The notes: generated by a model from the letters alone, not told the origin. Shown: positions 9,901 to 27,113, counted from the first letter of the stretch. The stretch is 64,000 nt of DNA from Candidatus Poribacteria bacterium (GCA_965200395.1 CBDAUH010000003.1:874398-938397); one strand, 5' to 3'. A program made the numbers and translations.

Positions 9901-10028
9901 AGGCATCGTAAAAATGTGGCGGGGTTAAATGTCCCTGCTCCGACTTCTATATCGCAGGGTTGTTGAATGATACATCCGTGTTCTGCCCAAAATTTTTCTA
10001 GTGCTAATATTATTTCTTGAAAGGTCAT
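6999..10028 (-). CDS. glyQS: Glycine--tRNA ligase, fused alpha-beta subunits
   Basis: The N-terminus from [21 protein letters not shown] matches GlyQ alpha; the long beta-like remainder follows in one frame. ATG at 10026-10028. The 10415 start in the ORF track is an over-extension into the IS-flanking repeat. Confidence 0.85.
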
Positions 10029-10189
10029 ATTTGTTTGTTGTTGTCCGCTCCGTTTCTGTTGGTTGATTCGGGTAATTATTATAGCACAATGGAATTGGTT
10101 AATCAACGAATTTTCAGATGCCTCATTTACCCCCTTTATCCTCCCGCAGGCGGGGGGAGATAAGAATGGATGGAAGAGACCCCCCTTTA

Positions 10190-11528
10190 TCCCGCACTTA
10201 CCCCCATTTTTTTTTTGAATGCGTGTGTAGTTGTGTTCATAGGTCTCCAATGTTGTCATGTCAGTTCTTCTGCGGTGAGAAAGTTTATATCTCTCAAACA
10301 AGTCCTCTCGGTGAACAAGAGCAACGCCTCCTGCGTCCACACCTCGCGGATCATACGGTTGATGACACTGATCACGGAGTAAACTTTCCGCGTAGGGTGT
10401 AAAGTTTTTGCCCATCTGTCCGCAGCTTTTTCATAACACAGGAACGCCAAACCATAAGCCACGACTGCCAACAAAAACAGAACTTCCATCCGGGGCTGTT
10501 CGTTCTTTCTCAAAACGAGTGCTTTGAAACCGAAGTTCGTTTTCAAGTCTCTGAACCCGTGTTCAATCTGTGTCCGCCGCTTGTAGCAAGTTCGCAGGGG
10601 GTTCCCCTGAAGCCGATTGGAGATAAGATATAACGGGTCTTTCTTGGTGTGCTGTCCCCCAACATAGAGTGCCACAGGCACCTGCTCCGTGTAGTGATAA
10701 AGCACTTGTGGGTAAAAACCATTTGCCACTTCTTCAAGGCACTGCTTGTTGCCTGCTATACGCACACCAACATTGCGTGGCACACGCATCAAGTAGCAGA
10801 TGCCTTGCCCCTCAAAAAACTTGAGGATCGCTCTCGCTCGGGCGAACCCTCTGTCAAAAACCAACACAGGCTCCCGACTATCCCCTAACACTTTAACAAC
10901 GCGACTATGGACATCACAACAGAACTGCTGAACTAAATCGTTATGTCCTTGATAGGTGCCATCTTTGAGCATCTCATTTTTATACAGAACCCAATAGAGC
11001 GGGATCGCACGATTGCGAAACGGAAGGGCTGCAACAATCGCCTTCCATCCGCCCGGTAAATCTGTCTCGTCTATCAGCACAAGCAGATGCTGCATCCCCA
11101 CAGAACGACACACACTGACAACTATATGTGACAACCAAGCACCCTTCACCGCTGCAACCGGAAAATAGGTGTCAATAAACCGCAACACACGCTTTTGCTT
11201 AGACTTGTCGTGTTTCACACGGATAGGTAGATGTGAGGCAATCGATTGAATACGAAAACTTGGGGCTACACACACAGCCTGTAGCATCAAATAAAAGTTG
11301 CGGAGCGTCGGTTTTTTGATACAAACCCCGTTGAAAACTTTACGAAAACCTGTTATAATCTTTCTGGGATGTACCCAGCTAAGGGTATATTTCATAAGAA
11401 TACCTCCCTGCCGGTTTTTCACCGACATTATTTTATATGGAGGTATTCTACCATAACCCATCAGACTTTCCAACTTATTTCTATACACACACACGCCTAC
11501 ACATACCGCATACAAAAATGGGGGTAAG
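10190..11528 (-). mobile_element. IS4-family insertion sequence
   Basis: DDE transposase ORF flanked by roughly 12-bp terminal inverted repeats: cacttaccccca at 10194-10205 and tgggggtaagtg at 11514-11525. The element sits inside an array of GC-rich palindromic units (CCCGCAGGCGGGG). Confidence 0.6.
10256..11395 (-). CDS. IS4-family DDE transposase
   Basis: [15 protein letters not shown] is a Y-x2-R-x3-E-x6-K signature. ATG at 11395 is preceded by a GGGAGG ribosome-binding site. Confidence 0.75.
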
Positions 11529-11660
11529 TGAGCTTTATCCCCCCGCAGGCGGGGGGAATATGTAGTGATTGTATACCCGCAGGCGGGGGAATGTGTAGTG
11601 ATGCATACCCGCAGGCGGGGGAATGAGAGAGTGGACCCGTAGGCGAGGGGAATGCGTCCA
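11516..11660. repeat. Tandem array of 4 units of about 32 bp, each with the palindrome CCCGCAGGCGGGG (REP-like)
   Basis: Units at about 11537, 11572, 11604 and 11634. One further unit lies at 10148-10162 on the other side of the IS. Confidence 0.6.
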
Positions 11661-11665
11661 TCCTG

Positions 11666-13066
11666 TTACTTCAATAGGGACCAATCAGGTTCGTCTTCTG
11701 GGTTGCCGAGGGGACCGTGTGCGTTGCGGACGATGCGGCGTTGTGCATCATACCAATCGGTGTAGCTTGTGGCAGGTTGAAGTTTGTCGTTTCGGGCATC
11801 CATAAGATTTAAGAGCGTATTTTCCATTTCGTCTGCTAAAGACTTTGCTTCGGGATTGTCAATTAAGTTGTTCATCTGCAGCGGGTCTGTTTCAATGTCG
11901 TATAACATCCGCTTTCCGTCAAGCCACCGCGCGTAACTGTGGGATTTTGTGCGGACACCACGCCATTCGTCACCGTCAACAAAGTAATCGTAGGTTGCGC
12001 CGAAGTTCATTGTCAAAACAGCTTCTTGTTCATAAGCGTTCTTTTCGCCACGCCAGGATGCGGACAGATCATAGCCTTCCACTGTGCGAGAGGGTTGGAT
12101 TCCGCATAAACCGCAGAGGGATGGGAATAGGTCGACGGGGGATGTGAGCGTATCACAGGTGCGGTTTCCTTCAAACACGCCGGGGAGCCGCATTATCAAG
12201 GGCACTTTGATGGATTCCTCGTAAGGTTTTTTCTTTGCCCAAAAATTGATGCCTTGTGCGCCGCCTTGCGTGCCGTGATCAGAACCGAAGATAAGCAATG
12301 TGTTATCTACACGACCTGTTTTTTCAAGATATGTCATCAGTTCTCCGAGCATATCGTCAACTGCTAAAATCATAGCGAGATAGTGACGGTAAATTTTTGT
12401 GGATTGTTCTCGCTGTTTGTCTGACACGTTTTCAGGGAGATAGAGTTTGTCAGGGAGTCGGTCATAGTATTTCTGTGGGGCATATTCGTAGGGTGTGCTA
12501 TGTGCTTGATGTGGAGAGATGAACAGACAAAATGGTGTGTCATCGTTAACGTCATTCATAAACTGAAAAGCGTATCGGTTGAGTGCGTCAGTTTCATATC
12601 CTTCCCATTTTTCGTTCCGCCAATTGTCAAGGTTTACAGTGCCGTTGAAATAGTCTGTATGGAAGTTATAGCCGCGCCAATGTTGGAATCCGAGTCGGTC
12701 GCGTCCTTCTGGGACATAATCGCGTCCGCCGATTTCTGGGAATGAACCTGTGTGGAGATGCCATTTGCCGATCCACGCGGTGCGGTATCCATTTCTGCTA
12801 AAAACGTCACCGAGTCCGATTTCGTCGTGTCGGGTTCTGACGAAGTTTATGAGATGCCCGGTAGTTTGCGGGTGTCGTCCGGTGAGTAGCATGGATCGGT
12901 AGGGCGTGCAGACAGGTGCGGTAGCGATTGCATTGGAGAAAACGGTGCCTTCCTGCGCAAGTCGATCAATGTGAGGTGTTTCAATCTGGGTTTCACCATG
13001 TACTGGCAAAGAGCAGGCACGGATTTGATCTGATAGGAGATAAACGATGTTGGGTTTGTTTGTCAT
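11666..13066 (-). CDS. Sulfatase (arylsulfatase family)
   Basis: The CTPYR motif is a C-x-P-x-R formylglycine site, with sulfatase-like sequence throughout. ATG at 13066. Confidence 0.8.
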   Translation of the reverse strand: MTNKPNIVYLLSDQIRACSLPVHGETQIETPHIDRLAQEGTVFSNAIATAPVCTPYRSMLLTGRHPQTTGHLINFVRTRHDEIGLGDVFSRNGYRTAWIGKWHLHTGSFPEIGGRDYVPEGRDRLGFQHWRGYNFHTDYFNGTVNLDNWRNEKWEGYETDALNRYAFQFMNDVNDDTPFCLFISPHQAHSTPYEYAPQKYYDRLPDKLYLPENVSDKQREQSTKIYRHYLAMILAVDDMLGELMTYLEKTGRVDNTLLIFGSDHGTQGGAQGINFWAKKKPYEESIKVPLIMRLPGVFEGNRTCDTLTSPVDLFPSLCGLCGIQPSRTVEGYDLSASWRGEKNAYEQEAVLTMNFGATYDYFVDGDEWRGVRTKSHSYARWLDGKRMLYDIETDPLQMNNLIDNPEAKSLADEMENTLLNLMDARNDKLQPATSYTDWYDAQRRIVRNAHGPLGNPEDEPDWSLLK

Positions 13067-13124
13067 GATTTAATTTTTTCGGTGGGAAATTATTTGGGTA
13101 GATTTTAATATGTTTCTGAATTTT

Positions 13125-13215
13125 GGATTACACTAAATCAACGGTATGAATGCCTTTTGGCATTCCCCGGATTACGCGGATAAACGTGGATTTTGTTTTT
13201 TGTGAGTACTGATGT
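13125..13215. repeat. Dispersed hairpin-containing intergenic repeat (copy R1)
   Basis: caaatcaacggtatgaatgccttttggcattccccggattacgcggat...ggattttgttttttgtga; near-identical copy at 18786-18890 and a degenerate copy at 15128-15215. Confidence 0.5.
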
Positions 13216-13553
13216 TTGTAGAGCAAATTTTTGAGTCTGCTGAAGAAATATCGGTGGTTAGAATTTCTTGATGATTCCATCTCGAACCGCTTTCAGGGCA
13301 TTCAATTTTAACGTGTTGGGTTTCACTGCGTTCAACCCAACCTACTGTAGGGGCGATCTTCCGCTCATGACCCCCTTCGCAACAATGCCCAAAAATCCGA
13401 CAATTGAATGGCTCTGGTACCGCTTTGCGACTGAATTCTTTATCAGTTGTTGTGTGTGCCCAAATTGTTTAGTTTTCTTCAGTAATTGTGGTGTGCTTCT
13501 AAACTGTTTCTACTCACTTATTAAGAATACGGAGTATTTTCTCAGTTTCTGCT

Positions 13554-14984
13554 TCAAGTTTTACATCGCCCGCCTGTATCGCAAGCCGCAGGGCGGTTGC
13601 GGAGGTCTTGCCTCGCTTCCAGAATCCGACCTAAAAGACCCTTCGCGAGTCCTCGAACATAGTATGCTCTGGCATAATCAAGTTTTAGTCTTATGGCAAT
13701 GTCATAATCGGCAATCGCAGCACTGTATTGTTCCAATTTACCCTTTGCATTTCCCCGATTGTAGTATGCTAAGGCATCAGGTTTTAGTCTTATGGCGATG
13801 TCATAATCAGCAATCGCAGCAAAATGTTGTCCCAAGTTATCCTTCGCAGCTCCCCGATTGTTGTATGCTTCGGCAAAATCGGGCTTGAGTCTTATGGCGA
13901 TGTCATAATCAGCAATCGCAGCACTGTATTGTCCCAAGTTATTCTTGACACTTCCTCGATTGTAGTATGCTAAGGCATCAGGTTTTAGTCTTATGGCAAT
14001 GTCATAATCAGCAATCGCAGCAAAATGTTGTCCCAAGTTATTCTTCGCAGCTCCCCGATTAAGGTATGCATCGGCAGCATTAGGTTTTAGTTTTATGGCA
14101 GTGTCAAAATCGGCAATTGCAGCAAAATGTTGTCCCAAGTTATCCTTCGCAGCTCCCCAATTGAGGTATGCATTGGCATCATCGGGTTTGAGGCGGATAG
14201 CCTTGGTATAGTCTGTGATGGCACCTGCGTAATCGCCTAACTTGTACTTCACGTTTCCCCACAGAAAGTAGGTCTCCGCAGAGATAGAAGATTGTCCTTG
14301 TGATAAAGGTTTTGACAGCCCCGGTCCCTTCAGCAGCTTTTTAAGATATTTGGATGGAATGGCAAAGTTAAGGTTCTGGGCATCCAAGGATCTGTGGGTA
14401 GAAAAGGACACACCAATCACTTCGCCTTTACGATTTAGCACAGGACCGCCACTACTCCCAGGAGAAATCGGCGCAGTCATCTGCAAACGTTCTTTTGTGT
14501 ACTTATCTCTACGGCTACTGATAAGACCATCCGAGAAGGTGCCTTCTAATCCTTTCGGATTACCTGCAACGTAGACTGTCTCACCGATTCGTACGGTATC
14601 GCTTTCACCCAGCGAAAGCGGTTTGATGCCGTACGCGGTCACCTTTAGAAGTGCAAGGTCGTTTACCTTGTCGGTTGCTGTAACGCCTTCAATCTTGTAT
14701 TGGGTATATTTACCGACTAACTTTGCGGTACCTTTAGCTGCGCCTTCAATTACGTGGTAGTTCGTAGCAATGAGATTAGATTTGACAAAGAATCCGCTGC
14801 CGATTCCGAGGGTTTTTCCGTTTTTGTCCTGCATCTCCAAGTATACTGTTGCTGCTAATGCTTTTTCTGCGATGTCTTCGGCGGGGAGGGTGGTTTGTGC
14901 TGGTGCTGTGATTGTTATGCAAAAGAGGAGAAAAGTGGCTGCGCATTGGGAGAATATCCATAATAATTTGGCTTTGTGTTTCAT
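13554..14984 (-). CDS. Secreted trypsin-like (S1/HtrA-like) serine protease with C-terminal TPR array, paralog 1
   Basis: Signal peptide MKHKAKLLWIFSQCAATFLLFCITITAPAQ; catalytic-triad context TNYHV (His), DLALLKV (Asp) and GSSGGPV (Ser); followed by about 7 TPR repeats. The C-terminal tail differs from the paralogs because of a 1-nt indel near 13590. Confidence 0.8.
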   Translation of the reverse strand: MKHKAKLLWIFSQCAATFLLFCITITAPAQTTLPAEDIAEKALAATVYLEMQDKNGKTLGIGSGFFVKSNLIATNYHVIEGAAKGTAKLVGKYTQYKIEGVTATDKVNDLALLKVTAYGIKPLSLGESDTVRIGETVYVAGNPKGLEGTFSDGLISSRRDKYTKERLQMTAPISPGSSGGPVLNRKGEVIGVSFSTHRSLDAQNLNFAIPSKYLKKLLKGPGLSKPLSQGQSSISAETYFLWGNVKYKLGDYAGAITDYTKAIRLKPDDANAYLNWGAAKDNLGQHFAAIADFDTAIKLKPNAADAYLNRGAAKNNLGQHFAAIADYDIAIRLKPDALAYYNRGSVKNNLGQYSAAIADYDIAIRLKPDFAEAYNNRGAAKDNLGQHFAAIADYDIAIRLKPDALAYYNRGNAKGKLEQYSAAIADYDIAIRLKLDYARAYYVRGLAKGLLGRILEARQDLRNRPAACDTGGRCKT

Positions 14985-15040
14985 GGTATTTTCCTTTGAT
15001 GGTGTAGCTTGTCTTGAAGATTGAACGTGTTATTGACAAA

Positions 15041-15069
15041 ATGATAACACAATTTGCTGAAGGTGTCAA
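15041..15069 (-). promoter_or_regulatory. Near-consensus sigma70 promoter of protease paralog 1
   Basis: Minus strand reads TTGACA-17 nt-TATCAT, about 55 bp upstream of the ATG at 14984. The element is conserved upstream of all three paralogs. Confidence 0.55.
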
Positions 15070-15484
15070 GAGTGTTTTTGTTTTCAACGGAGGCATTCAA
15101 AAGTCGCGGATTTTTTGTCAGAATCTCGGATTTTCACCAAATCAACGGTATGAATGTCATTTAGGCGTTCCTCGGATTATCTTTGTCAGGATCGCGGAGG
15201 ACACTAAATCTGAGGCAATTGAATGGCTCTGGAAACATCACAGAAAAGGTTGCCTGTTCTACGGCAAATTTGTTATAATTTTAACATCATGTTTCGGGTG
15301 GAACTGCTACGAATCGGAAACCCTTTTTCGTTTCTCCGCCCCTTCTGCTGTAGCAGAGGATAGAATAAAATGGAGGCGGGAATCCGAGGGAGATGATACT
15401 GGAAGGATCGCTGCGTGTGTAGCAAACAAAACATGGCACACCCATCACCTTGCCACACCAAAATCTAATTTGGAGGTAATTAAA

Positions 15485-16159
15485 TTGGGAAAACACCATA
15501 ACATTCAGAGCGGAACAGACTGGATAAATAACATTGTTACTTTCAACGGACAAGGATGTTCGGGGAAAACGACCCAAGTGAAACTGCTTGCCAACTCAAA
15601 TAAAGAGGAGTATAAACGCATTCATAGTTATAAACTTCGGAGGAAGTTCAAGAAAAAAATTTATGAGAAAACGGAGGGTATGAATACAGATATCAAGTAC
15701 TTAAATGAGAGTGGTACTTGTAAGAAACTATACAGTGTGGAAGTTTCAGGACATCCTTCCTTCGCTTGGTTGATAGCTAATTTTTACAAGACAGCGAAAC
15801 CACTTATGTTGGAGGGCACCACCGTTGTTTTAGATCACTATCTCGGCGACTATTATGCCGATATGTTAGCTTGTGTTGATATTGCGGATCTTCTATCTCT
15901 CGTCAGAGAAGATTTGGTGATACCAGATTTTGATCAAGGTACGCATTTCTATCTTGATATTGATTACGAGATCTATCAGGAGAGATGGCGCGAGCGGGAA
16001 GGAACCGAGCCGCGAGTGAATAGAGAAACTTTTAAAAAACGACGTGAACGCTATCAAGAACTTTGTGAATTGACACCGCTGAAATGTATTGACGCTAAGG
16101 TGAGTAAGGAGGAGGTTGCTAAAAAGGTACAAGAGGTTTTAGCTTGCGAAAATCAATAA
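15485..16159 (+). CDS. P-loop kinase-like protein (thymidylate/dNMP-kinase-like Walker A)
   Basis: FNGQGCSGKTTQ Walker A near the N-terminus. Proposed TTG start at 15485 with a GGAGG ribosome-binding site 8 nt upstream. The upstream part of ORF 15014-16159 overlaps the promoter and repeat and is rejected. Confidence 0.45.
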   Translation: MGKHHNIQSGTDWINNIVTFNGQGCSGKTTQVKLLANSNKEEYKRIHSYKLRRKFKKKIYEKTEGMNTDIKYLNESGTCKKLYSVEVSGHPSFAWLIANFYKTAKPLMLEGTTVVLDHYLGDYYADMLACVDIADLLSLVREDLVIPDFDQGTHFYLDIDYEIYQERWREREGTEPRVNRETFKKRRERYQELCELTPLKCIDAKVSKEEVAKKVQEVLACENQ

Positions 16160-16263
16160 AAAAGCAGTGTGTTATGTAGTACTATGTGGCCAGACGATCA
16201 TGTTCCGAGTCAATGTGGTTTCAGCTTCGATCGCTTATGTACTTACAGATAAAGGAGAAAATA

Positions 16264-16902
16264 ATGTCAAGTGAAATGTTATTACGAAATGCGATTTCCA
16301 CGATTGCCAACGATGGTATTGAAGAATGTCGGAAAGAGATTGAGAAAGCGGAATACCGCTGTGGACTTATTACAGAAAAAGACGTTTTCCTGAATAACTT
16401 CATTTGGATGGGGCCTCCAAAGGAATGGGAAGCGTTTACACCATCGGCTACCGAAATCGGTAAGCTTTATGAAGAGATAGCACCTCAAGAAGAACCGGCG
16501 CGCACACTAAACACTGTTGTTGAAGGTATAAAGAAGAGGTTTCCGGATGCGGATACCGCTGTGGGCGCGGTAAGTGCCCTTTACAAAACGTCTGAATGGT
16601 TTGGCAAACACTTAAGCCTTTGTACACACTTTGATGTGCATCTTATGTCGTCGCTATGGGTCAGGAATCTCCGATCTTCGAGTGGATCAGAATCGGCAGA
16701 TAAACTTTATATTGAAGATGGGAACCATCGAGCGTTAGTTTATGCAATACGGTTGATCTATGGTGCTGAAAAGGAATTTAGACCTGTTCGAGTGATTTGG
16801 TGTAAGTCATGGGAGCACATTCTTTGTTGGGCAGGTGATCCTGAAGCTGGAGATTCACCGCCTAGTGCTCTTGAGGAGTTTTTTACCGCATCGGTGAAAT
16901 AG
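16264..16902 (+). CDS. ParB/Srx-like nuclease-domain protein
   Basis: YIEDGNHRALVYAI is a DGxHR ParB/sulfiredoxin-fold signature. ATG at 16264 is preceded by an AAGGAG ribosome-binding site. Confidence 0.5.
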   Translation: MSSEMLLRNAISTIANDGIEECRKEIEKAEYRCGLITEKDVFLNNFIWMGPPKEWEAFTPSATEIGKLYEEIAPQEEPARTLNTVVEGIKKRFPDADTAVGAVSALYKTSEWFGKHLSLCTHFDVHLMSSLWVRNLRSSSGSESADKLYIEDGNHRALVYAIRLIYGAEKEFRPVRVIWCKSWEHILCWAGDPEAGDSPPSALEEFFTASVK

Positions 16903-16998
16903 AAAGATATCATTGAGGATGTCTACAGGTTTCGCAAAGAAGGGCGTTTATACAAGGATAACGGAATCCGTAGCGTTTTCGGTTGTATAGGTGTGAGT

Positions 16999-17139
16999 TC
17001 ACAATCTGATATACCTATTTTCTATGCCAAGTCTGCGCGCTTCCGCCCAGAGCAACTTCTGAAAGAACGTAACTGCTGTCTCCAGATTGAGTTGATCAAG
17101 GTCGTCGTTCTTCAGGGTGAAAATATTTTCATGATGCAT
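16999..17139 (-). pseudogene. 5' remnant of a second STAND NTPase gene copy
   Basis: Minus-strand translation MHHENIFTLKNDDLDQLNLETAVTFFQKLLWAEARRLG matches the first ~38 aa of the 19081-22860 product; a stop follows 9 codons later. The upstream GGGGGAG ribosome-binding site and conserved intergenic sequence are also present. Confidence 0.6.
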
Positions 17140-17373
17140 CACTTCACTCCCCCAAATTACTGAATTTTCTATTATGGTTAAATATGAAAATAAATAGACA
17201 CCGCATCCATAGAAGTGATCCTAGAATTTCGCCTTATCTCAATAATAGTCGGGTTTCGCAAGCTCTACCTGACCTACAAAATGTCCGATTAATTCTAAAA
17301 TCTACCATAGTTGTTGTGTGTGCCCAAATTGCTTAGTTTTCTTCAGTAATTGTGGCGTGCTTCTAAACTGTTT

Positions 17374-18756
17374 CTACTCACTCATTAAGTTAAGAATACG
17401 CAGTCCCTCCTCGATATCTGCTTTAAGTTTTACATCGCCCGCTTGTGTTGCAAGCCGCAGGGCAGTGCGGAGGTCTTGCCTCGCTTCCAGTGTCCGACCT
17501 AAAAGACCCTTTGCAAGTCCTCGACCGTAGTATGCATCGGCATAATCAGGTTTTAGTCTTATAGCGGTGTCATAATCGGCAATCGCAGCAAAATGTTGTC
17601 CCAAGTTATTCTTCGCAGCTCCCCGATTAAGGTATGCATCGGCAGCATTAGGTTTTAGTCTTATAGCGGTGTCATAATCGGCAATTGCAGCAAAATGTTG
17701 TCCTAAACGAGCCTTTGCATTTCCCCGATTGATGTACGCATCGGCATAATCAGGTTTTAATCTTATGGCGGTGTCAAAATCAGCAATTGCAGCAAAATGT
17801 TGTCCCAATTTACCCTTCGCATTTCCCCGATTATTGTATGCTGTGGCAACATCAGGTTCGAGTCCTATGGCAATGTTATAATCAGTAATCGCAGCAAAAT
17901 GTTGTCCCAATTTACCCTTCGCATTTCCCCGGTTGTTGTATGCTGAGGCAACATCAGGTTCGAGTTGGATAGCCTTAGTATAGTCAGCGATGGCACCCGC
18001 ATAATCGCCTAAATTGTACTTCACATTTCCCCACTGGAAGTAGGTCTCGGCAGAGATAGAACGTTGTCCTTGTGATAAAGGTTTTGACAGCTCCGGTTGC
18101 TTCAGCAGATTTTTAAGATATTTGGATGGAATGGCAAAGTTGAGGTTCTGCGCATCCAAATCCTTATAGACAGCAAAGGACACACCGATTACTTCGCCTT
18201 TTTTGTTTAGCACAGGACCGCCACTGCTCCCAGGAGAAATCGGCGCAGTCATCTGCAAACGTTCTTTTGTATATCTATCTCGACGGCTACTGATAATGCC
18301 ATTCGAGAAGGTTCCCTCTAATCCTTTCGGATTGCCCGCAACATAGACTGTCTCGCCGATTCGCACAGTATCGCTGTCACCAAGGGAAAGCGGTCTGATA
18401 CCGTACGCAGTTACCTTTAGGAGTGCCAGGTCGTTTATCTTGTCGGTTGCTGTAACGCCTTCGATGTTGTATTGGGTATATTTGCCGACTAACTTTGCGG
18501 TGCCTTTGGCTGCGCCTTCAATTACGTGGTAGTTCGTAGCAATGAGGTTAGACTTGACAAAGAATCCGCTGCCGATGCCGAGGGTTTTTCCGTTTTTGTC
18601 CTGCATCTCCAGGTATACTGTTGCTGCTAATGCTTTTTCTGCGATGTCTTCGGCGGGGAGGGTGGTTTGTGCTGGTGCTGTGATTGTTATGGAAAATAGG
18701 AGGAAAGCGATTGCGCATTGGGCGAATATCCACAATAATTTATTTCTGTGTTTCAT
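17374..18756 (-). CDS. Secreted trypsin-like serine protease with TPR array, paralog 2
   Basis: More than 90% identical to paralog 1 across the protease domain, with about 6 TPR units and an intact C-terminus ...LRILNLMSE. Confidence 0.8.
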   Translation of the reverse strand: MKHRNKLLWIFAQCAIAFLLFSITITAPAQTTLPAEDIAEKALAATVYLEMQDKNGKTLGIGSGFFVKSNLIATNYHVIEGAAKGTAKLVGKYTQYNIEGVTATDKINDLALLKVTAYGIRPLSLGDSDTVRIGETVYVAGNPKGLEGTFSNGIISSRRDRYTKERLQMTAPISPGSSGGPVLNKKGEVIGVSFAVYKDLDAQNLNFAIPSKYLKNLLKQPELSKPLSQGQRSISAETYFQWGNVKYNLGDYAGAIADYTKAIQLEPDVASAYNNRGNAKGKLGQHFAAITDYNIAIGLEPDVATAYNNRGNAKGKLGQHFAAIADFDTAIRLKPDYADAYINRGNAKARLGQHFAAIADYDTAIRLKPNAADAYLNRGAAKNNLGQHFAAIADYDTAIRLKPDYADAYYGRGLAKGLLGRTLEARQDLRTALRLATQAGDVKLKADIEEGLRILNLMSE

Positions 18757-18785
18757 GGTATTTTCCTTTGATGGTATGGCTTGTT

Positions 18786-18890
18786 TTGGTTCTGAATCGC
18801 GGATTACGCCAAATCAACGGTATGAATGCCATTTGGGCATTCCCCGGATTACGCGGATGAACGCGGATTTTGTTTTTTGTGACTGCTGGT
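18786..18890. repeat. Dispersed hairpin repeat (copy R3) inserted between promoter and start of protease paralog 2
   Basis: Near-identical to 13125-13215. Confidence 0.5.
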
Positions 18891-19009
18891 GTCTGTTTGT
18901 GGTATAGTTTTTCGTCTATGTTGTGCTTGTGCAACCTAAAGGTTTATGGTATATCGGCGTTTCGACCTATCTTCATATTTCGGGCAGTGAACTCATGTTA
19001 TTGTTGAAA

Positions 19010-19038
19010 ATAATAACACAATTTGTTGAAGGTGTCAA
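19010..19038 (-). promoter_or_regulatory. Sigma70-like promoter of protease paralog 2
   Basis: Minus strand reads TTGACA-17 nt-TATTAT. Confidence 0.45.
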
Positions 19039-19080
19039 GTTCTTAGGGAAGCGGCGGAAGTTTTCAACACAGCATTGTAC

Positions 19081-22000
19081 TTAAAATTCTCGTTCTTCGT
19101 ACATCTTCGCGTTTGTAATCTCTACTTCCAGTATGGCGACAAACTCATCAACCCACTGTTTTACATTCTCATTGTCTTCGCTCGCTTTTATACGGCAAAG
19201 TTTCTGCTTTTTCGCTTGATAGTTTTCACTTTTCAACCCCATCGTTACTCCTTCGAAAAAATTGGAGATGAGCGCACTGCGAACATCTTCTCTATTACCA
19301 TAGCGGACGAGGATTTTTCGCGCCAAGGAATCGCCCCATTCCGCTGCTGCAAGCGTTTTCGGAACACACCCACGCGCAAGAGACCTTGCGCGCTTTTCTA
19401 CGTCTTCGTCAATCCATTCCCAGATGTTTTTCGGTGGGATCAAGGTCAATGCGCCTGTTCCTTTTTTCGTCTCCGAGAGGTCTGTCTCTCTCATCCATTT
19501 TTCAAAAGCGCGTGTTCTCCAAAAGTCTTCTGAATCTTCTAAGGCGTTGCTAACGCGTTTCCAAACCGCTACTGGGGCCTGTTTCGCCATTTCGGTGAGA
19601 ATAGAATTCGTCTGTGAATAGACATCAAACAGTGCTCCCTTTTTACCGAAGTGAACCAGCATACGTTCTACAAGTTCTAAAGCTTTTGTTGGATGGTGGT
19701 GTATGAACATTTTTCCGATTTTTGTCCAATGATAAGTCATCATGCTATCGGTTTGATGTTCTTCCAACACGGATGAATGCGTGAGCACTTGGAACGTAGG
19801 ATCAAGCGGTAAAACCTGTTCGTTTTTATTTAAGATATAGTAACGGTGATACAGCTTTAAGGCGATGGCTACGGCAGATGTCTCCGTGGATTCCAGTAAA
19901 AATTCAATCCATTTCTCAAAGACTCCAACCGATAGATTTTCTAAGCCTTTAGCGGAGCTCAATATTCCGAAGTGCTTATGATTGATGATTCCGTTTTGCG
20001 CGAGTTTCAGGAGGCTCACCCCCGCTGCATCTGTCATGCCTGAATACGAGATGAGTTCCGGAATGTGCACATTCAGTATTATATCTTCGCTGAGCGTCTC
20101 TAGTTGCTTTTCCCATCTCTCAAGGTCGGTGTTAAGGAGTGCAGAAAAATAACCTCCCAGAAAATACACGCTTGCATTTTCTGGGACGTTTCGCTGAGCC
20201 TCCAGCAGCATTGGGAGCAGCGAAAAACCGTTATCTTCTTGACCGAGTGCTTCTCCAAACCGATACCCGTTGTGTGCTTCAGTTGTGGCGAGCCATCGCA
20301 GTTCAGATTGCAAAAGCGATGGTGTCTCCACGGCTTGTTGTGCAAGGACCTGTATCTGTGGATGCCCGTGTACAAGATGATTTTTGTTTTCGTCAAAGTC
20401 GTCTGTGAGCAAATTCATTCCGACATACCGTTGCAGCCTCGATGGAAAGTTATCTCCTAGTAAATCGTCTATGAGCTGTTCCAACTGCTTGCGGATGTCA
20501 ACGGATAAACCTTTGCCATTGACGTAGGAATCATCATGAGACAGAATGTGACTCAGGGCGGTGATCACCTGCTTTTCGGTTGCATACCCTTTTTCAACGG
20601 TTGTTCTCATTGTACGGACAACGGTAGCTGCGAGATCGGGGATTCTCGCCATCGCGCTTGCATGACTCAGCAGAATGTTTATTCCTGTCTCACGCTCATC
20701 TTCAGGTAATATGGGCAATTGCGTAGACAAGAGTTGCCAGACGCGTCGGTAGGCATCCCAAAGTTCACCGTATGTTTTAGGGACCCAAAACGCGGGTTCT
20801 TTGCGTAGCCCTTGATATTCAGCACTTCCTGTCCGTGAAAAAAACTCTGATGTGAGTGCGGAGTCGCAAGCCCTTAAAGCAAGGAGTCTGCGTGCCTTGG
20901 ACTTAGATTTAAGTGCCTCTTCCAAGACAGGGAACCGCTCTGCGGGGGAGGCTTCGGAATGTGCAATGGGGCCAGATCCCGGTGAGAATATCTCGACAAA
21001 CATACCACTGGCGTTGTTTGCACAGCCCTCATTCTCTGCTTCGCCGAGGGCAAGCAGGAGACGCGCCGCATCTGTGAACAGATCTCGCCAAAATGCAATT
21101 TTTTCGAGGGCATATACGATGTTTCTTCTGCTATCTGTGAGTTGCAAAAGCGTTTTTCTGTCCCATTTCCCCACGGTTGCCTTAAGGCATTTTAAGGCAG
21201 AGGCGGGATCAGCGTTTGTCAATGCTAAAAAAAAACGGCTGCCCAGTCTTGTTTTCAGAGATTCGTTATTCTGGAAGGGGCCCTCTGGCCCGAGGAGGTC
21301 TCTGGCAATACCGGAGGCTGCTTCCGATTCAGCTGCGTACTCGAACATCTCGTAGAACCACTCAACCAATCTTGGGGGTAAGTCTTCAATGAACTGTTCA
21401 AGATGAAACAGTCTATGATGCCGTTCCCACCACTGTGTCCATAACTTGATATGGAGTGCTTTGGGTGTAATGTAGAGTGTGAATTCACCTTGAAGGATTT
21501 TACGTTCTTTGAGTTCGTGGAGGATATTTTCAAATTTGTGGGGTGTAATTTCTGGTGCTGCCGCCTGTACTTTTTTTGCGATGGCTTCTGCCTCAACAGC
21601 AACAGAGCGTTCATAGCCGAACCGCTTAAAGAGTGCCAGATGTTGGAGGATTAATCGCCGGTGTTCTGTTTTTTGGTGGTCGTCATCGCCTGCTGCGATA
21701 TAACGTTCCCATATATCCACTGTATCAGGTGGGAGCAGTACATCTTCTGGATGATTTACCAAATTCCATCCGATGACGTGTGCGACCCTGGGGGAGCCGC
21801 CGCAGAGTTCAGCCCACCGATTGACTGAAGGGGCAGAGATCGTCGTATACGTCTCAATGATGCTGCGAATTTGTCCATCTTCAAGTGGTGGCGCGACATA
21901 AGGGATAATGCCGCTGGTCCGCTCCTCATAGTCGTTATAGATCGTAACCAATTTAACGCGAGGTCCGCGGTGTCTTAATTTCTGCCAAATCTCATATTTG

Positions 22001-22860
22001 TTGTCTGGGTCACATTCATCAATAACGACAATCGCACAAAATGGGTTATCCTCTCGGAGCAGCGCGTTTATCAAAACACTGTCTCGAAATTGTGATGGTG
22101 TGCAGTAGATTACTAAAGGTGATAAATCTTCTGCCCGCGTTGCTTCAAGCACTAATCGCGTTTTACCAATACCGGGTTCACCTAAGACGCGTATGTGAAC
22201 GGTATCTTCATCTCGCCGCAATTCGTTTTGTAGCTCTTCAATAAAGTCTTCTTGTGCCTGTCCGAGAAACAGCGGGTCCTGCATACCCGCATTCTGCTCC
22301 CAGCTCTGATGGGTTTGAAATTTTGCCTCGCTAAGTTCCTTGGTGTCCAATGCTAACGATGGGAACCGTTCAACAAAACCGATGAGCGTATTCTGACTCC
22401 ACACCTCAACTTTTGGGGGTTGTCCGTGTTCAGATGTCAGAATGCTCTTAATGTGAGAAAGGATTGCTCTGTGTTCACTATCAACAAGGTCAATTCCGGT
22501 GCATACCAAAACGTAAGTTCCATCAGCCTCAAGACAGGCTTGAATACCTTCCTTAATGTTTTCTTGTATATTGAGGAGTTCTTTTTCGATATTTGGTTTT
22601 GTTTTTCCTGATTTGATCTGATAGAAGGTTTTGCCTGGCTTAATGAGGCCTCCGCTGATTGTTTCTTGAGCTTCGTTCACAGTTGCATCGATCCCTCCAT
22701 CTGGGACATGCACACGGCGCGATATATTTATTTTTCCGATTTCTACGCCGAGTCTACGCGCTTCTGCCCACAGCAGCTTCTGAAAGAACGTAACTGCCCT
22801 CTCCGGATTGAGTTGAGCAAGGTCGCTGTTCTTCAGGGTGAAAATATTTTCATGATGCAT
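19081..22860 (-). CDS. STAND-type P-loop NTPase with N-terminal Mrr-like nuclease domain and about 800-aa C-terminal helical-repeat sensor region (Avs-like candidate)
   Basis: N-terminal segment VHVPDGGIDATVNEAQ...YQIKSGK fits the Mrr-cat D-(E/Q)xK pattern. Walker A VLGEPGIGKT and Walker B IVVIDECD are present. ATG at 22860 with a GGGGGAG ribosome-binding site. Confidence 0.7.
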   Translation of the reverse strand: MHHENIFTLKNSDLAQLNPERAVTFFQKLLWAEARRLGVEIGKINISRRVHVPDGGIDATVNEAQETISGGLIKPGKTFYQIKSGKTKPNIEKELLNIQENIKEGIQACLEADGTYVLVCTGIDLVDSEHRAILSHIKSILTSEHGQPPKVEVWSQNTLIGFVERFPSLALDTKELSEAKFQTHQSWEQNAGMQDPLFLGQAQEDFIEELQNELRRDEDTVHIRVLGEPGIGKTRLVLEATRAEDLSPLVIYCTPSQFRDSVLINALLREDNPFCAIVVIDECDPDNKYEIWQKLRHRGPRVKLVTIYNDYEERTSGIIPYVAPPLEDGQIRSIIETYTTISAPSVNRWAELCGGSPRVAHVIGWNLVNHPEDVLLPPDTVDIWERYIAAGDDDHQKTEHRRLILQHLALFKRFGYERSVAVEAEAIAKKVQAAAPEITPHKFENILHELKERKILQGEFTLYITPKALHIKLWTQWWERHHRLFHLEQFIEDLPPRLVEWFYEMFEYAAESEAASGIARDLLGPEGPFQNNESLKTRLGSRFFLALTNADPASALKCLKATVGKWDRKTLLQLTDSRRNIVYALEKIAFWRDLFTDAARLLLALGEAENEGCANNASGMFVEIFSPGSGPIAHSEASPAERFPVLEEALKSKSKARRLLALRACDSALTSEFFSRTGSAEYQGLRKEPAFWVPKTYGELWDAYRRVWQLLSTQLPILPEDERETGINILLSHASAMARIPDLAATVVRTMRTTVEKGYATEKQVITALSHILSHDDSYVNGKGLSVDIRKQLEQLIDDLLGDNFPSRLQRYVGMNLLTDDFDENKNHLVHGHPQIQVLAQQAVETPSLLQSELRWLATTEAHNGYRFGEALGQEDNGFSLLPMLLEAQRNVPENASVYFLGGYFSALLNTDLERWEKQLETLSEDIILNVHIPELISYSGMTDAAGVSLLKLAQNGIINHKHFGILSSAKGLENLSVGVFEKWIEFLLESTETSAVAIALKLYHRYYILNKNEQVLPLDPTFQVLTHSSVLEEHQTDSMMTYHWTKIGKMFIHHHPTKALELVERMLVHFGKKGALFDVYSQTNSILTEMAKQAPVAVWKRVSNALEDSEDFWRTRAFEKWMRETDLSETKKGTGALTLIPPKNIWEWIDEDVEKRARSLARGCVPKTLAAAEWGDSLARKILVRYGNREDVRSALISNFFEGVTMGLKSENYQAKKQKLCRIKASEDNENVKQWVDEFVAILEVEITNAKMYEEREF

Positions 22861-22963
22861 TACTTCACTCCCCCAAATTACTGAATTCTCTATCAGTTGT
22901 TGTGTGTGTCCAAATTGTTCAGTTTTCTTCAGTGATTGCGGTGTGCTTCTAAACTGTTTCTAC

Positions 22964-24642
22964 TCACCTATTAAGAATACGTAGCAGCTTCTCGATATCT
23001 GCTTTGAGATTTGCATTGCCTGCTTGTGTCGCAAGCCGCAGTGCAGTGCGGAAGTCTTGTCTCGCTTCCAGTGTCCGACCTAAGCTACCCTTCGCAAGTC
23101 CTCGACCGTAGTATGCATCGGCATAATCAGGTTTTAGTCTTATGGTGGTGTCATAATCGGCAATCGCAGCAAAATGTTGGCCTAAGTTACCCTTTGCAAC
23201 TCCCCGGTTGTAGTATGCTAAAACATAGTCGGGTTTTAATCTTATAGCGGTGTCATAATCGGCAATCGCTTCAAAATGTCGTCCTAAGTTTTTCTTCGCA
23301 AGTCCCCGGTTGTTGTATGCTTTGGCATCATTTGGTTTTAGTCTTATAGCGGTATCATAATCGGCAATCGCAGCAATGTATTGTCCTAAATCGGTCTTCA
23401 CATTTCCCTGATTATAGTATGATGATACCTCATCGGGTTTTAGTCTTATAGCGATGTTATAATCGGCAATCGCCTTAAAATGTTGTCCTAAATTAGCGTT
23501 CACATTTCCTCGGTTGTTGTATGCTTTGGCATCATTAGGTTGTAATCTTATGGCGGTGTCATAATCGGCAATCGCAGCAGTGTATTGCCCTAAATCAGCC
23601 TTCGCCAGTCCTCGGTTGTTGTATGCTTTGGCCTCATTTGGTTTTAGCCTTATGGCGATGTTATAATCAGCAATTGCCTCAAAATGTTGCCTCAACTTAT
23701 GCTTCACAAATCCCCGGTTGTTGTATGCTTCGACATAATCAGGTTTTAGTCTTATAGCAGTGTCGTAATCGGCAATCGCCTCAAAATGTTGCCCCAGGTT
23801 ATACTTCGCAAGTCCGCGACTGTAGTATGCCGTGGCATTCTTTGGTTCGAGTTTTATGGCCTTGGTATAGTCTGCGATGGCACCTATATAATCGCCTAAC
23901 TCGGACTTCACATTCCCCCACAGGAGGTAGGTCTCCGCAGAGATAGAAGATTGTCCTTGTGATAAAGGTTTTGACAGCCCCGGCCCCTCCAGCAGCTTCT
24001 TAAGGTATCTGGATGGAATAGCGAAGTTGAGGTTCTGTGCATCCAAAGATCTATGGTAGAAAAGGACACACCGATTACTTTACCTTTTTTGTTTAGCACA
24101 GGACCGCCACTGCTCCCCGGAGAGATCGGCGCAGTCATCTGCAAACGTTCTTTTGTGTACTTATCTCGCCGGCTACTGATAATGCCATCCGAGAAGGTGC
24201 CTTCTAACCCTTTCGGATTACCTGCAACGTAGACTGTCTCACCGATCCGCACAGTATCGCTTTCGCCCAGCGAAAGTGGTTTGATGCCGTACGCTGTCAC
24301 CTTTAGGAGTGCAAGGTCGTTTATCTTGTCGGTTGCTGTAACGCCTTCAATCTTGTATTGGGTGTATTTACCGACTAACTTTGCAGTGCCTTTAGCTGCG
24401 CCTTCAATTACGTGGTGGTTGGTAGCAATAAGATTAGACTTTACAAAGAACCCGCTGCCGATTCCGAGGGTTTTTCCGTTTTTGTCCTGCATCTTCAAGT
24501 ATACTGTTGCTGCTAACGCTTTTTCTGCGATGTCTTCGGCAGGGAGGGTGGTTTGTGCTGGTGCTGTGATTGTTATGCAAAAGAGGAAAAAAGCGGCTGC
24601 ACATTGGGGGAATATCCACGATAATTTATGTCTGTATTTCAT
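22964..24642 (-). pseudogene. Trypsin-like protease with TPR array, paralog 3, frameshifted
   Basis: Split into ORFs 23908-24642 and 22964-24046. A 1-nt deletion relative to the paralogs lies near 24050; about 9 TPR units. Confidence 0.55.
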
Positions 24643-24698
24643 GGTATTTTCCTTTGATGGTATAGCTTGTTTTGGAGACTGAAGATGCTATTGACAAA

Positions 24699-24727
24699 AT
24701 GATAACACAATTTGCTGAAGGTGTCAA
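24699..24727 (-). promoter_or_regulatory. Sigma70-like promoter of protease paralog 3
   Basis: Minus strand reads TTGACA-17 nt-TATCAT. Confidence 0.5.
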
Positions 24728-24766
24728 GGGTGTATTTGTTTTGTCAGTTGGATTTTGTAGTGAAGT

Positions 24767-25834
24767 CTAAAACTTCAGTCCTACACTAACGCGGTGTGCA
24801 TCATTTAGGTATCCAAAATCAGCGAATGCGTAATCTAACGATAGCAGTGTGTTACCGAACTTTAAATGTATTCCTAAACCGAGGGTCAATCCTTCCACGT
24901 CGTCACTGCGGTCAGGGCCTAAACGGAATTTGTAGCCTGCTCGAAGTGCTGCCATCTTTCTATACCAGTATTCTATGCCGAGATTCAAACGTTCACTGTT
25001 ATCGTTCGGATGATTACCGTCAAGGGCGATAGTGAGAAGGTTGCTTTCGTTATCGATTAGGTCATAAGCTAAACCGAGTCTAAAGTTAGATGGTAGCGGA
25101 AATTCGACGGTATCTAGCGTTGCTTTAACTGGTGGATTTGTAGTATCTGGATGCGGTGGATATTCTGCAAGTTGTTCATTCCCCGCAACTTCGGTACCTG
25201 CCTGAAGATCAGGGCCGCTGAAACGCATTTCAGGCCCAAAATTAGCGAAGGACATTCCGATTCGGAGGCTACGCCATCCTGTGTGGTATAAGGTGCCGAC
25301 ATCTATAGCAACCCCTCTTGCGCTTTCTCGATGAACTTGCTGATGGATATATTTGGTATTGATACCGAAGGAGAGCGTGGCACCGGATTCTTTTCGATAG
25401 AGTTGTCTGGAATATGCAAGTGAGACTGCGGTATCCCATGCGGAGTACCAAAGTCCTGTGCCATCCGGGGAGTCAAGCGTTGTGATTTCGGTATCGGGAA
25501 CGTTGAGAAATGTGACACTTGCTCCTAATGTGCCGATCTTCTCTATAGGTATTGCAAAGGCGAGATAGTTGTATCGGACATCTGCAAGCCAGATCGTGTG
25601 TGTATCTGAAAAGCTGGTTTTTTTGAGTTGGCTTAACCCTGCTGGATTCCAATAGATAGTTGTGACGTCGTTTGCAATTGCGCCGAATGCGCCACCTAAA
25701 CTGTCCACGCGTGCGCCAGGTCCAATTTTGAGAAATTGTGCGCCAGCGGTTCCCACATTCGTTGTGGCATAACCGGGAACTATCAATGAAAACATAAGAA
25801 TAAACGTGAATAGTAGAACATGGTAGTGCTGCAT
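24767..25834 (-). CDS. Outer-membrane beta-barrel protein, PorV/UPF0164-like
   Basis: Signal peptide MQHYHVLLFTFILMFSLIVPGYA, alternating-hydrophobic beta-strand pattern, C-terminus ...VSVGLKF ending in Phe. ATG at 25834. Confidence 0.5.
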   Translation of the reverse strand: MQHYHVLLFTFILMFSLIVPGYATTNVGTAGAQFLKIGPGARVDSLGGAFGAIANDVTTIYWNPAGLSQLKKTSFSDTHTIWLADVRYNYLAFAIPIEKIGTLGASVTFLNVPDTEITTLDSPDGTGLWYSAWDTAVSLAYSRQLYRKESGATLSFGINTKYIHQQVHRESARGVAIDVGTLYHTGWRSLRIGMSFANFGPEMRFSGPDLQAGTEVAGNEQLAEYPPHPDTTNPPVKATLDTVEFPLPSNFRLGLAYDLIDNESNLLTIALDGNHPNDNSERLNLGIEYWYRKMAALRAGYKFRLGPDRSDDVEGLTLGLGIHLKFGNTLLSLDYAFADFGYLNDAHRVSVGLKF

Positions 25835-25911
25835 GTCTGCCTTTTGTACTTTTGCTAACGATGTGTCTTGTCTATTTGGGTAAAAAGTAACATTGTGCAT
25901 GTATTTCTCCT

Positions 25912-26418
25912 TTATCGAATGATTGCGAAGCGTCCGACCTTATTTCCGATGACTTCATTATTTTCATCTTGTGCTTCGACATGGAAGATATAAACGCCGC
26001 TGGCAAGGGCTTGATTATAGCGGTTGAGCAGATCGAATTCCGCTGTTCCGCCTTTGTCTCCTTGTGCTAATCGTTCGTCTGGCTTGAAGTCATCGCTACT
26101 TTCGTGTTTGATTTCACGGACTAGTTCCCCTGCCAACGTATAGATTCGTATAGTGCATCGTGGTGGCAGCCGTGTGAAGAAGATTTTGTCCGCTCCTTCA
26201 ACATTTTCCGCTTTGTTCGTAACAAAGTATGGATTTGGCACGACACGGATTCTATCGAGGTCTGCTTTGATGTTTTCGGATTCAAGTGATTCTTTTTTTG
26301 TGGTGAGTAGCTGCTCATCACCGTCCTGTGGGGCGCGGATACCTCCCATTTCAACGGTAAATACATCACCTTCAGATATTTCTCCATTTGGGTCGGAGAT
26401 ATAGACATAATACCATTT
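25912..26418 (-). CDS. C-terminal secretion/sorting-like domain (T9SS-CTD or FlgD-Ig-like), probably a detached C-terminal fragment
   Basis: VVPNPYFVTNKAENVEGADKIFFTRLPPRCTIRIYTLAGELVREI...SGVYIFHVEAQDENNEVIGNKVGRFAIIR. The open frame starts immediately at the IS630 boundary at about 26419. Confidence 0.45.
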   Translation of the reverse strand, partial: KWYYVYISDPNGEISEGDVFTVEMGGIRAPQDGDEQLLTTKKESLESENIKADLDRIRVVPNPYFVTNKAENVEGADKIFFTRLPPRCTIRIYTLAGELVREIKHESSDDFKPDERLAQGDKGGTAEFDLLNRYNQALASGVYIFHVEAQDENNEVIGNKVGRFAIIR

Positions 26419-26426
26419 CTAAGAGT

Positions 26427-27113
26427 TTATACTGCATTAGCAGCCTTTATGAAATGTGAGAACCCAGTGAGTTTAGCGATAGCAGCATCGGAATAACTTT
26501 GAAGTATCTCCGTCACTTTCGCTTGCATAGCCTCAAGCGTCTCATAGAACTCGGTAAACAACTTCGCTTTCAAGTCTTGCCAGAAACGCTCAATTGGGTT
26601 CAACTCCGGACTATACGGCGGTAAGAAAAGTAAAACAACATTAGCAGGAACCACTAACGATTTAGCATGATGAAAACGACCCTTATCAAGCACTAATAAG
26701 TTGAGGCTCTCCGCGTAGGCAACCGATACAGCATCAATGAAACACTGAAAACAATCTGAAGTCAAGTGGGAAAGTTCTAAGAAAAATCGCTCACCTGTCA
26801 AAGGTTCAACCGCACCATAGAGATAAACCGATGTATATTGGTAATCTATCTTCGCGACAGGTTTGACACCGCGTTGCGTGATACGCCGTTCTGTAGTAGG
26901 CAAAAGACCATATCGCGTCTCATCTTGACTGAAAACACGAACGCTTTGAAAATCCGCACCTTTTTCAGCAACCGCATCAGCGACATGTTTGCTAAACTCG
27001 GAGCGGAATGTTTCAGTCGCTACTGCGTTTTTTTTTACATGGCTCTTACGAGGCACTTTGAGTTTGGCTCCCCATTTATCATGAACCATTGCGTAAACAG
27101 TTTTATAGTTCAT
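26427..27113 (-). CDS. IS630 transposase, DDE domain (orfB)
   Basis: ...FLPPYSPELNPIERFWQDLK is the DDE_3 signature. Confidence 0.75.
   Translation of the reverse strand: MNYKTVYAMVHDKWGAKLKVPRKSHVKKNAVATETFRSEFSKHVADAVAEKGADFQSVRVFSQDETRYGLLPTTERRITQRGVKPVAKIDYQYTSVYLYGAVEPLTGERFFLELSHLTSDCFQCFIDAVSVAYAESLNLLVLDKGRFHHAKSLVVPANVVLLFLPPYSPELNPIERFWQDLKAKLFTEFYETLEAMQAKVTEILQSYSDAAIAKLTGFSHFIKAANAV

Follow-up and report, generated by a model that had tools for sequence, protein, structure and literature searches.

Does a gene for a predicted secreted protease that sits directly upstream of an antiphage-type gene form a dedicated two-gene system with it, or were two neighbors copied together? 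The question arises from a triplicated region in a 64,000-nt stretch of DNA from a Candidatus Poribacteria bacterium (GCA_965200395.1 CBDAUH010000003.1:874398-938397; the whole stretch is called the window, and positions count from its first letter). Three genes there encode a Trypsin_2 protease domain followed by tetratricopeptide repeats (TPRs), and one of them precedes an intact gene for a STAND protein that resembles the antiphage protein Avs8. The best explanation, to which we assign a probability of roughly 0.7, is segmental triplication of a Poribacteria protease gene and an adjacent defense gene, followed by truncation and replacement, the adjacency of the two being opportunistic. By its sequence, the locus is made of known parts, all of which belong to known families.

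The triplication consists of three paralogous minus-strand units, each comprising a sigma70-like promoter, a Trypsin_2-TPR gene and a downstream segment of ~87 nt. All relevant genes of the region lie on the minus strand. The units and the sequences that join them are as follows.

13430-13513, minus strand: conserved 3' segment after copy 1, ending at GAATTCAGT
13554-14984, minus strand: protease-TPR copy 1, a 476-aa open reading frame (ORF) with 6 TPR units, its frame shifted near the 3' end
15041-15069, minus strand: promoter-like element of unit 1, TTGACA-17-TATCAT with TG
16999-17139, minus strand: 5' remnant of a STAND gene after copy 2, an ORF of 46 codons plus stop, with STAND homology over 40 codons, ending at 17019
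17140-17373, minus strand: region downstream of copy 2, made up of the 3' segment (17309-17373), an insertion of ~136 nt (17173-17308) and the STAND ribosome-binding site (RBS) region (17140-17172)
17374-18756, minus strand: protease-TPR copy 2, 460 aa with 5 TPR units plus cap, the sole intact copy
18790-19006, minus strand: 217-nt insertion between promoter and 5' untranslated region (5'UTR) of copy 2; its 3' part is a repeat, R (18787-18896), described below
19010-19038, minus strand: promoter-like element of unit 2, TTGACA-17-TATTAT with TG, a homolog of those of units 1 and 3
19081-22860, minus strand: intact STAND gene, 1259 aa, Avs8/PD-lambda-4A-like
22861-22963, minus strand: 103-nt spacer between copy 3 and the STAND gene, made up of the conserved 3' segment (~22880-22963) and the STAND-specific RBS region (22861-22879)
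22964-24642, minus strand: protease-TPR copy 3, with a signal-peptide-like N-terminus, Trypsin_2 and 8 TPR units plus cap; split
24699-24727, minus strand: promoter-like element of unit 3, TTGACA-17-TATCAT with TG

Comparison of the region with itself recovers all three units. A blastn search of positions 12000-26000 against themselves pairs 13740-15016 with 17506-18788 (86.1% identity), 13641-15084 with 23294-24742 (85.4%) and 17545-18789 with 23432-24675 (84.7%), each at E=0; numerous further off-register matches, with a period of 102 nt, are the TPR arrays of the protease copies. Over codons 1-194, the protease domain, the three genes share 90.5-91.9% of their DNA, which bears out the close similarity reported in the initial annotation, and the proteins are 92-94% identical to one another at the amino-acid level. 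The window copies are closer to each other than to any listed database member, so the triplication is lineage-specific. An independent contig (L082, 14.5 kb, from ENA sample ERZ25068762) aligns to positions 11548-26056 at 99.97% identity, with 1 mismatch and 4 gaps, and contains all three units, the STAND remnant, an opposite-strand cassette and both of the frameshifts described next.

Two of the three protease genes are broken by single bases. In copy 3, initially described as one ORF from 22964 to 24642, a C run at ~24055-24056 has lost 1 nt, which divides the gene into an ORF for the protease part (23908-24642, 244 aa) and another for the TPR part (22964-24046). Copy 1 carries a 1-nt insertion at ~13598 that replaces its last ~28 residues. 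Single-base repair gives products of 489 aa for copy 1 (stop at 13514-13516) and 559 aa for copy 3, both of which regain the normal C-terminus of the family. Counted as TPR units plus cap, the arrays number 6, 5 and 8 in copies 1, 2 and 3.

Protease and STAND sequences have diverged to the same extent at synonymous sites. Among the copies, the protease domain shows a dS of 0.27-0.36, a dN/dS of 0.10-0.13 and a proportion of differing synonymous sites (pS) of 0.23-0.28. Aligned with the opening 40 codons of the intact gene, the STAND remnant has 12 differences in 120 nt; pS is 0.24 (6/25.3 sites) and the nonsynonymous proportion (pN) 0.06, and its sequence bears signs of constraint. The agreement in pS fits one old, shared duplication event and upholds the segmental duplication with differential decay that had been proposed for the locus. 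The remnant had been counted as 47 codons; the ORF does run to 46 codons and a stop, but its likeness to STAND ends after 40. The copies are old duplicates that were maintained as functional genes, and their frameshifts would therefore be recent.

The pairing of the two genes is rare elsewhere. A scan of one genome per species turned up 152 STAND-gene relatives, and 80 loci were retained from these. When the protease domain was searched against these 80 other Avs8-like loci by tblastn, a close relative (76% identity) appeared at one, L010, in a Poribacteria genome. There a protease gene (6335-7900) and a STAND gene (7998-11792) are separated by a spacer of ~100 nt, similar to that in the window, and the flanking genes are otherwise not syntenic with the window. 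No trypsin match was found in the flanks of 78 of the 80, and L023 and L026 have a distant match only, two genes upstream of the Avs8-like gene. In a neighbor-joining tree of 77 STAND sequences, the window and L010 proteins are not sisters; the smallest clade that holds both has 24 members, the others without a protease. Neighbor clustering of the 80 loci gave no universal partner and no cluster present at more than 13; Eco57I-type methylases, BatA/DUF58 operon genes and type I restriction-modification (R-M) subunits each recur at ~8-13. The nearest STAND homolog (P0001, 70% identical) has an FGE-sulfatase gene beside it and the next nearest (P0002, 60% identical) a type I R-M system, with no protease called beside either.

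The protease side of the pairing gives a similar picture. Eight protease homologs looked up gave six distinct other loci, with no Avs8-like gene called beside the protease at any of them. One paralog of the same sample, 88% identical, has the dcw cluster on one side and nadD-like, YacG and HD genes on the other, and orthologs in other genomes hold a conserved place between PhyH genes and the ATP synthase operon. Protease and STAND proteins share no domain or adaptor in a direct BLASTP comparison (best E=0.98), and they are predicted to occupy different compartments: the N-terminus of the protease resembles a signal peptide, and hydrophobic segments are absent from the STAND protein (19-residue hydropathy of 1.38 at most). 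Within the window, the intact STAND gene follows a frameshifted protease gene (copy 3), and the intact protease gene (copy 2) precedes a STAND stump. The rarity of the pairing, the non-sister STAND proteins, the lack of a shared domain, the different compartments and the mismatch of intact copies together leave a dedicated protease-STAND system, tempting as that inference was, without support.

These data suggest a simple history for the locus. Its ancestor would have carried one member of a family of secreted, HtrA-like (S1C) serine proteases with TPR repeats in place of PDZ domains, immediately upstream of a horizontally acquired, self-sufficient Avs8-like antiphage gene. By analogy with E. 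coli Avs8, the STAND protein would bind a phage structural protein, oligomerize and cut DNA. The duplicated unit would have spanned the protease promoter, the protease-TPR gene, the 3' segment and 120 nt or more of the start of the STAND gene. Purifying selection would then have acted for long on the protease copies as their TPR arrays drifted in length (5, 6 and 8 units), and the second STAND copy was probably functional, and under selection, for most of that period. Its cut to 40 codons (at 17019) would be recent, with the opposite-strand cassette (15014-16902) now in its place, and so would the small insertions and the two single-base frameshifts. Defense and other variable genes seem to land downstream of Poribacteria protease-TPR genes, and no two-component mechanism would be involved. 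Read this way, the locus offers a checked example, from an uncultured sponge symbiont, of how a defense gene can be copied along with a neighboring housekeeping-type family gene in a segmental duplication and be lost in its course.

The 5' flanks of the units agree with tandem duplication. The three promoter-like elements are the top-scoring minus-strand sites (11/12) within the 12 kb scanned. They are homologous, as expected if the same promoter precedes each copy; that of copy 2, however, has been displaced by the 217-nt insertion, which parts it from the last 33 nt of its 5'UTR. Homology of unit 3 starts at 24742, 25 nt past the stop of a PorV-family gene, and that of unit 1 at 15084. The unit 2 promoter begins 43 nt after the STAND stop, where a head-to-tail tandem duplicate would place it.

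The segment downstream of the proteases belongs to the protease gene rather than to the STAND gene. It begins at the protease stop codon in all three copies and extends for 87 nt at 94% identity in copy 1 and 72 nt at 92% in copy 2, so the shared ~100-bp segment of the initial annotation is real, though broken in copy 2 by the ~136-nt insertion. An unlinked paralog (L083, 9269-9355) has the same ~87-nt segment with the same end-point as copy 1 (GAATTCAGT), which makes the segment part of the protease gene unit. Copy 1 does carry this segment by itself, its homology stopping at 13430, ahead of the RBS; because it ends where that of L083 ends, copy 1 need never have had a STAND neighbor and is not necessarily a relic of a longer unit. 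After copy 3, GGGGGAG and then the ATG of the 1259-aa gene follow as described, but the segment that leads to them is the protease's own, and the copy taken to be intact is frameshifted.

Little sequence is left over that could drive the STAND gene by itself. Between the 3' segment and the ATG lie only ~20 nt of STAND-specific sequence, AATTTGGGGGAGTGAAGTA, of which L010 has just the GGAGTGAAGTGATG part in common with the window. With nearly no sequence of its own ahead of the RBS, the STAND gene is probably transcribed either by read-through from the strong protease promoter or from a weak promoter in the protease 3' segment, where the copy 3 spacer contains a weak TGGACA-16-GAGAAT site. We found no terminator-like site in the 103-nt spacer, and co-transcription of the two genes is plausible on these sequence features. 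The 3' segment is 91-97% identical among the copies and 90% identical to L083, above the ~72-77% seen at synonymous sites, and is therefore likely to be under some constraint. A structured RNA was considered and rejected: an Rfam E-value scan of 12900-25000 gave no match in the conserved downstream segment, its sole match being a sub-threshold fluoride riboswitch (E=0.23) inside the STAND coding region, and folding z-scores of the spacers were -0.4 to -0.6.

The protease copies belong to a known family that appears, from its database members, to be multi-copy, centered on Poribacteria and variable in TPR number. All three match Trypsin_2 (E~1e-31, one match at E=3.5e-31) and TPR in Pfam and contain the catalytic motifs NYHV (His), NDLALL (Asp) and GSSGGP (Ser). 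Their N-terminus, MKHRNK-LLWIFAQCAIAFLLFSITIT-APA/Q, includes a 20-residue hydrophobic stretch with a mean Kyte-Doolittle hydropathy of 2.15, from which we predict secretion. A protein-database search returned more than 7000 homologs, the closest of them 70-88% identical, 290-440 aa long and likewise composed of Trypsin_2 and TPR domains; several carry the NCBI name 'TPR repeat-containing serine protease family protein [Candidatus Poribacteria]'. Members of this family share their architecture and variable TPR number with the window copies. The window differs in holding three copies within 11 kb, one of them abutting an Avs8-like gene, whereas the gene is single at the six loci examined elsewhere. 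A metagenome scan with the protease domain, which was no systematic sample, returned one locus only (L081, an 887-aa ORF of different architecture).

The protease domain is, by sequence, of the HtrA type without making the protein a canonical HtrA. It shares with the HtrA/DegP/HhoA (S1C) proteases the Trypsin_2/chymotrypsin-fold domain, the His-Asp-Ser motifs and the signal-peptide-like N-terminus. The one or two C-terminal PDZ domains of those proteins have no match in the window copies, which carry 5-8 near-consensus TPR units instead. The best NCBIfam matches are indeed HtrA/DegP/HhoA models, all far under their cut-offs (124 bits against 416). Solved relatives in the PDB are RsgI9, HtrA, HhoA, HtrA2 and DegP/Q, with the TPR part near consensus TPR proteins. 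Three of the other protease-TPR loci likewise have a TPR region annotated as a pair of ORFs (L084 9244-9477, L087 6208-6582, L088 6314-6718), and in the three flanks aligned TPR sequence is still readable past the called stop. Split TPR arrays thus seem frequent in the family, through real frameshifts or repeat-assembly errors.

The intact STAND gene probably encodes an antiphage protein of the Avs8/PD-lambda-4A kind, a defense function drawn by analogy. PD-lambda-4A is reportedly a system of Vassallo et al. 2022. The PADLOC profile PD-Lambda-4_A (PDLC03991) matches residues 6-687 over profile positions 3-699 of 1283 (E=6.8e-32, 108 bits), a match limited to the N-terminal 55% of the protein; the lengths are nearly equal, at 1259 aa and 1283 profile positions. 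PD-lambda-4 has been renamed Avs8, and Avs8A, which combines an Mrr nuclease with a STAND NTPase and binds HK97-fold major capsid proteins, defends E. coli without Avs8B (bioRxiv 10.1101/2025.07.02.662641; bioRxiv 10.64898/2026.01.04.697583).

The domain layout agrees with that assignment. The protein has the N-terminal Mrr-type PD-(D/E)xK nuclease and the P-loop/helical/winged-helix STAND NTPase module of Avs8, and D54, Q81, K83, the Walker A motif GEPGIGKT (227-234) and the Walker B DE (281-282) are invariant in 36 homologs. Among family members, 22/23 show a weak AAA_16 match and 19/23 a weak NB-ARC match. The AF2 model (mean pLDDT 76.6) consists of an alpha/beta N-terminal domain, a P-loop domain, helical and winged-helix domains and an alpha-solenoid that starts at ~residue 467 and continues to the C-terminus (modelled to residue 1200); in Foldseek this sensor solenoid matches importin/CAND1-type solenoids. 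Motifs, profile matches and model agree on the STAND label that the gene had first been given, and the PADLOC match sharpens it to Avs8-like. Shared with Avs8 are a restriction-endonuclease-fold domain with D...QxK, the STAND NTPase, the winged helix and a helical-repeat sensor. The C-terminal sensor half differs in not aligning to the Avs8 profile, and no Avs8B-like partner was identified. Searches of PDB sequences and of PHROGs with the STAND protein returned no match.

Relatives of the STAND gene are spread as a mobile defense gene would be. Candidatus Poribacteria, in which the Avs8-like family is widespread, account for about half of the 80 loci; the others belong to many bacterial phyla, candidate phyla radiation (CPR) bacteria and archaea. 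Set against the Avs8 of Gammaproteobacteria, the clade of the window gene is concentrated in Candidatus Poribacteria and scattered in archaea and CPR bacteria. Further relatives sit on cyanobacterial and haloarchaeal plasmids. Across the family the contexts vary, with R-M genes as neighbors. Like Avs8, the relatives occur as stand-alone genes in variable, defense-rich surroundings. This range of phyla, archaea and plasmids fits a mobile defense gene. Carriage by phages was considered and rejected after a scan of viral contigs without any relative.

One setting of the Avs8-like gene recurs within Poribacteria. In ~10 genomes (L026 2610-14053; L023 63-9484; L001) the gene lies, with gaps of 16-24 nt, between genes for a BatA-like 672-aa protein and a CARDB 735-aa protein, within a DUF58/BatA-type operon whose first gene (339 aa) falls outside the scan. 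A distant (31%) trypsin-like 454-aa gene is found two genes upstream. This is an unusually operon-embedded place for a defense gene.

The alternative that survives best reverses the order of events. A tandem array of protease-TPR genes would have formed first, the STAND gene or its 5' end would have been added later by insertions or gene conversion, and what looks like decay would be patchwork recombination. As in gene conversion, the flanks of the copies (the 3' segment, and the 5'UTR at 91%) are more alike than their synonymous sites. The homology of copy 1 ends exactly as in L083, so that copy 1 need not have had a STAND neighbor at any time, repeats R and REP-like hairpins (below) sit at the junctions, and transposases lie on both sides of the locus. 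We nevertheless consider this order of events unlikely: the remnant has the same pS as the adjacent protease domains, which fits a single shared duplication rather than recent conversion, and the unit 2 promoter lies right next to the STAND stop, an arrangement expected of a head-to-tail tandem duplicate.

A bolder proposal turns on the 3' segment. The ~87 nt after the protease stop would be a functional element that captures and drives promoter-less defense cassettes, in line with conservation of 90-97% that extends to L083, the terminator-free sequence and the weak, outward-facing promoter-like site. In the window, the Avs8-like gene starts ~20 nt past the segment and another cassette lies after copy 2. 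We treat this as a long shot. If true, the 3' ends of the protease family would be expression platforms or insertion hotspots for Poribacteria immune genes. In a weaker variant, the secreted protease and the STAND gene would be co-regulated for a functional reason.

More doubtful still is the functional module that the initial annotation implied, in which protease-TPR and STAND genes would form a real two-gene unit amplified as such. The protease might act, by processing or regulation, on the STAND protein or on some component of the phage, or an accessory sensor might be formed by the TPR array; we judge either version very improbable. The genes do share a strand and a terminator-free 103-nt spacer, the STAND gene has no upstream sequence of its own and its 5' end lies inside the duplicated unit, and L010 repeats the order amid non-syntenic flanks. 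Trypsin-like domains also occur in some defense systems, and the PADLOC models RT-Protease_XI, LmuA and PDC-M35A match the protease domain. Against this stand the single close pairing among the 80 other Avs8-like loci and the absence of any called at the six other protease loci, among them paralogs and orthologs with the dcw cluster or the ATP synthase operon as neighbor. The window and L010 STAND proteins are not sisters, the closest STAND homologs have no protease called beside them, E. coli Avs8A is self-sufficient, the two products are predicted in different compartments with no shared adaptor domain, and the intact STAND gene is paired with a frameshifted protease.

That the repeats are an assembly artefact, mis-joined or expanded in what is evidently a metagenome-assembled genome and at a locus whose internal 102-nt tandem repeats are difficult to assemble, is hardly credible and was rejected, because the copies are 8-15% apart, with differing TPR numbers, insertions and flanks, and a second contig, L082 from the ENA sample, spans the whole locus with all three copies.

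Several points nonetheless weigh against opportunistic co-duplication as we have told it. The same gene order and similar ~100-nt spacer in L010, amid unrelated flanks, could reflect selection for the pair. The excess conservation of the 3' segment over synonymous sites has, on its sequence, a reason beyond the account given here. Both frameshifts in the window might be shared sequencing errors in homopolymers or short runs. Secretion of the protease is predicted solely by inspection of its N-terminus. The trigger of the STAND protein may differ from that of Avs8, its sensor half having no alignment to the PADLOC profile. Finally, the hotspot idea that follows draws on ~10 loci and is a lead rather than a result.

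Variable genes at other protease loci suggest that defense genes often arrive at their 3' side. Between protease and atpC, some genomes have almost nothing (L092, L093) and others small ORFs (L084, L088). At L090, positions 7364-12674 hold SLFN_AlbA_2 and AAA_15/AAA_21 genes bordered by an atpC fragment of 72 aa, compared with the nearly empty interval of L092 (7180-8096). Downstream of the protease at two further loci come SLFN_AlbA_2, AAA_21 and a faint match to TIR_2, and in the window the Avs8-like gene and another cassette follow protease copies. The sequences thus suggest that variable or defense genes often land 3' of protease genes and that the family marks a candidate insertion hotspot for defense islands. 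Such a hotspot would explain two independent protease-Avs8 juxtapositions without a functional link. As at known integration hotspots of defense islands, variable cargo lies between conserved genes, here a protease-TPR gene and atpC. Unlike at those hotspots, no integrase or defined att site was found at the Poribacteria protease loci, in a small sample, and the window locus is a chromosomal site other than the atpC-linked one. If the hint holds, protease-TPR 3' flanks could help to find immune islands in Poribacteria genomes.

Two further features accompany the units.

15014-16902, plus strand: two-gene cassette, a P-loop dTMP-kinase-like gene and a gene for a 212-aa protein, in the place of the rest of the second STAND copy
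13111-13219, minus strand: second full copy of repeat R, between unit 1 and a sulfatase gene (ATG at 13066)

The opposite-strand cassette may be another defense-type insertion that replaced the second STAND copy. Its first gene has the P-loop GQGCSGKT and a dTMP-kinase-like match at residues ~173-378 only; the first ~170 codons look non-coding. The product of the second, the 212-aa protein, contains an EDGNHRAL motif; its family is small (42 database hits), and Pfam gave no match. One homolog of this protein, 50% identical, adjoins HATPase_c_3 and ScoMcrA-SBD/HNH genes and IS630 fragments.

Unit junctions are marked by repeat R and by REP-like hairpins. Repeat R (~109 nt) is present at 13111-13219 and 18787-18896 and in part at 15137-15179, just upstream of unit 1; it contains a perfect palindrome, GAATGCC-N5-GGCATTC, and repeated GTAATCCG motifs, and may be an operator or a recombination scar. 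A genome-wide miniature inverted-repeat transposable element was rejected as its identity, the core occurring twice in the 64-kb window with one partial copy, all at this locus; other loci have only short fragments, and R is a locus-specific junction repeat. The hairpins (TGTAGGTYRGGT...GAAACCCRAC) lie at 17248-17278, in the ~136-nt insertion, and at ~13314-13344, just beyond the end of copy 1 homology. From their sequence they look like a small mobile or palindromic element at breakpoints; a frequent element was rejected, with one exact pattern match in the window. On a larger scale, a DDE transposase ORF (10256-11515) and an IS630-family transposase ORF (26427-27113) bracket the sulfatase-to-PorV region that holds the triplication.

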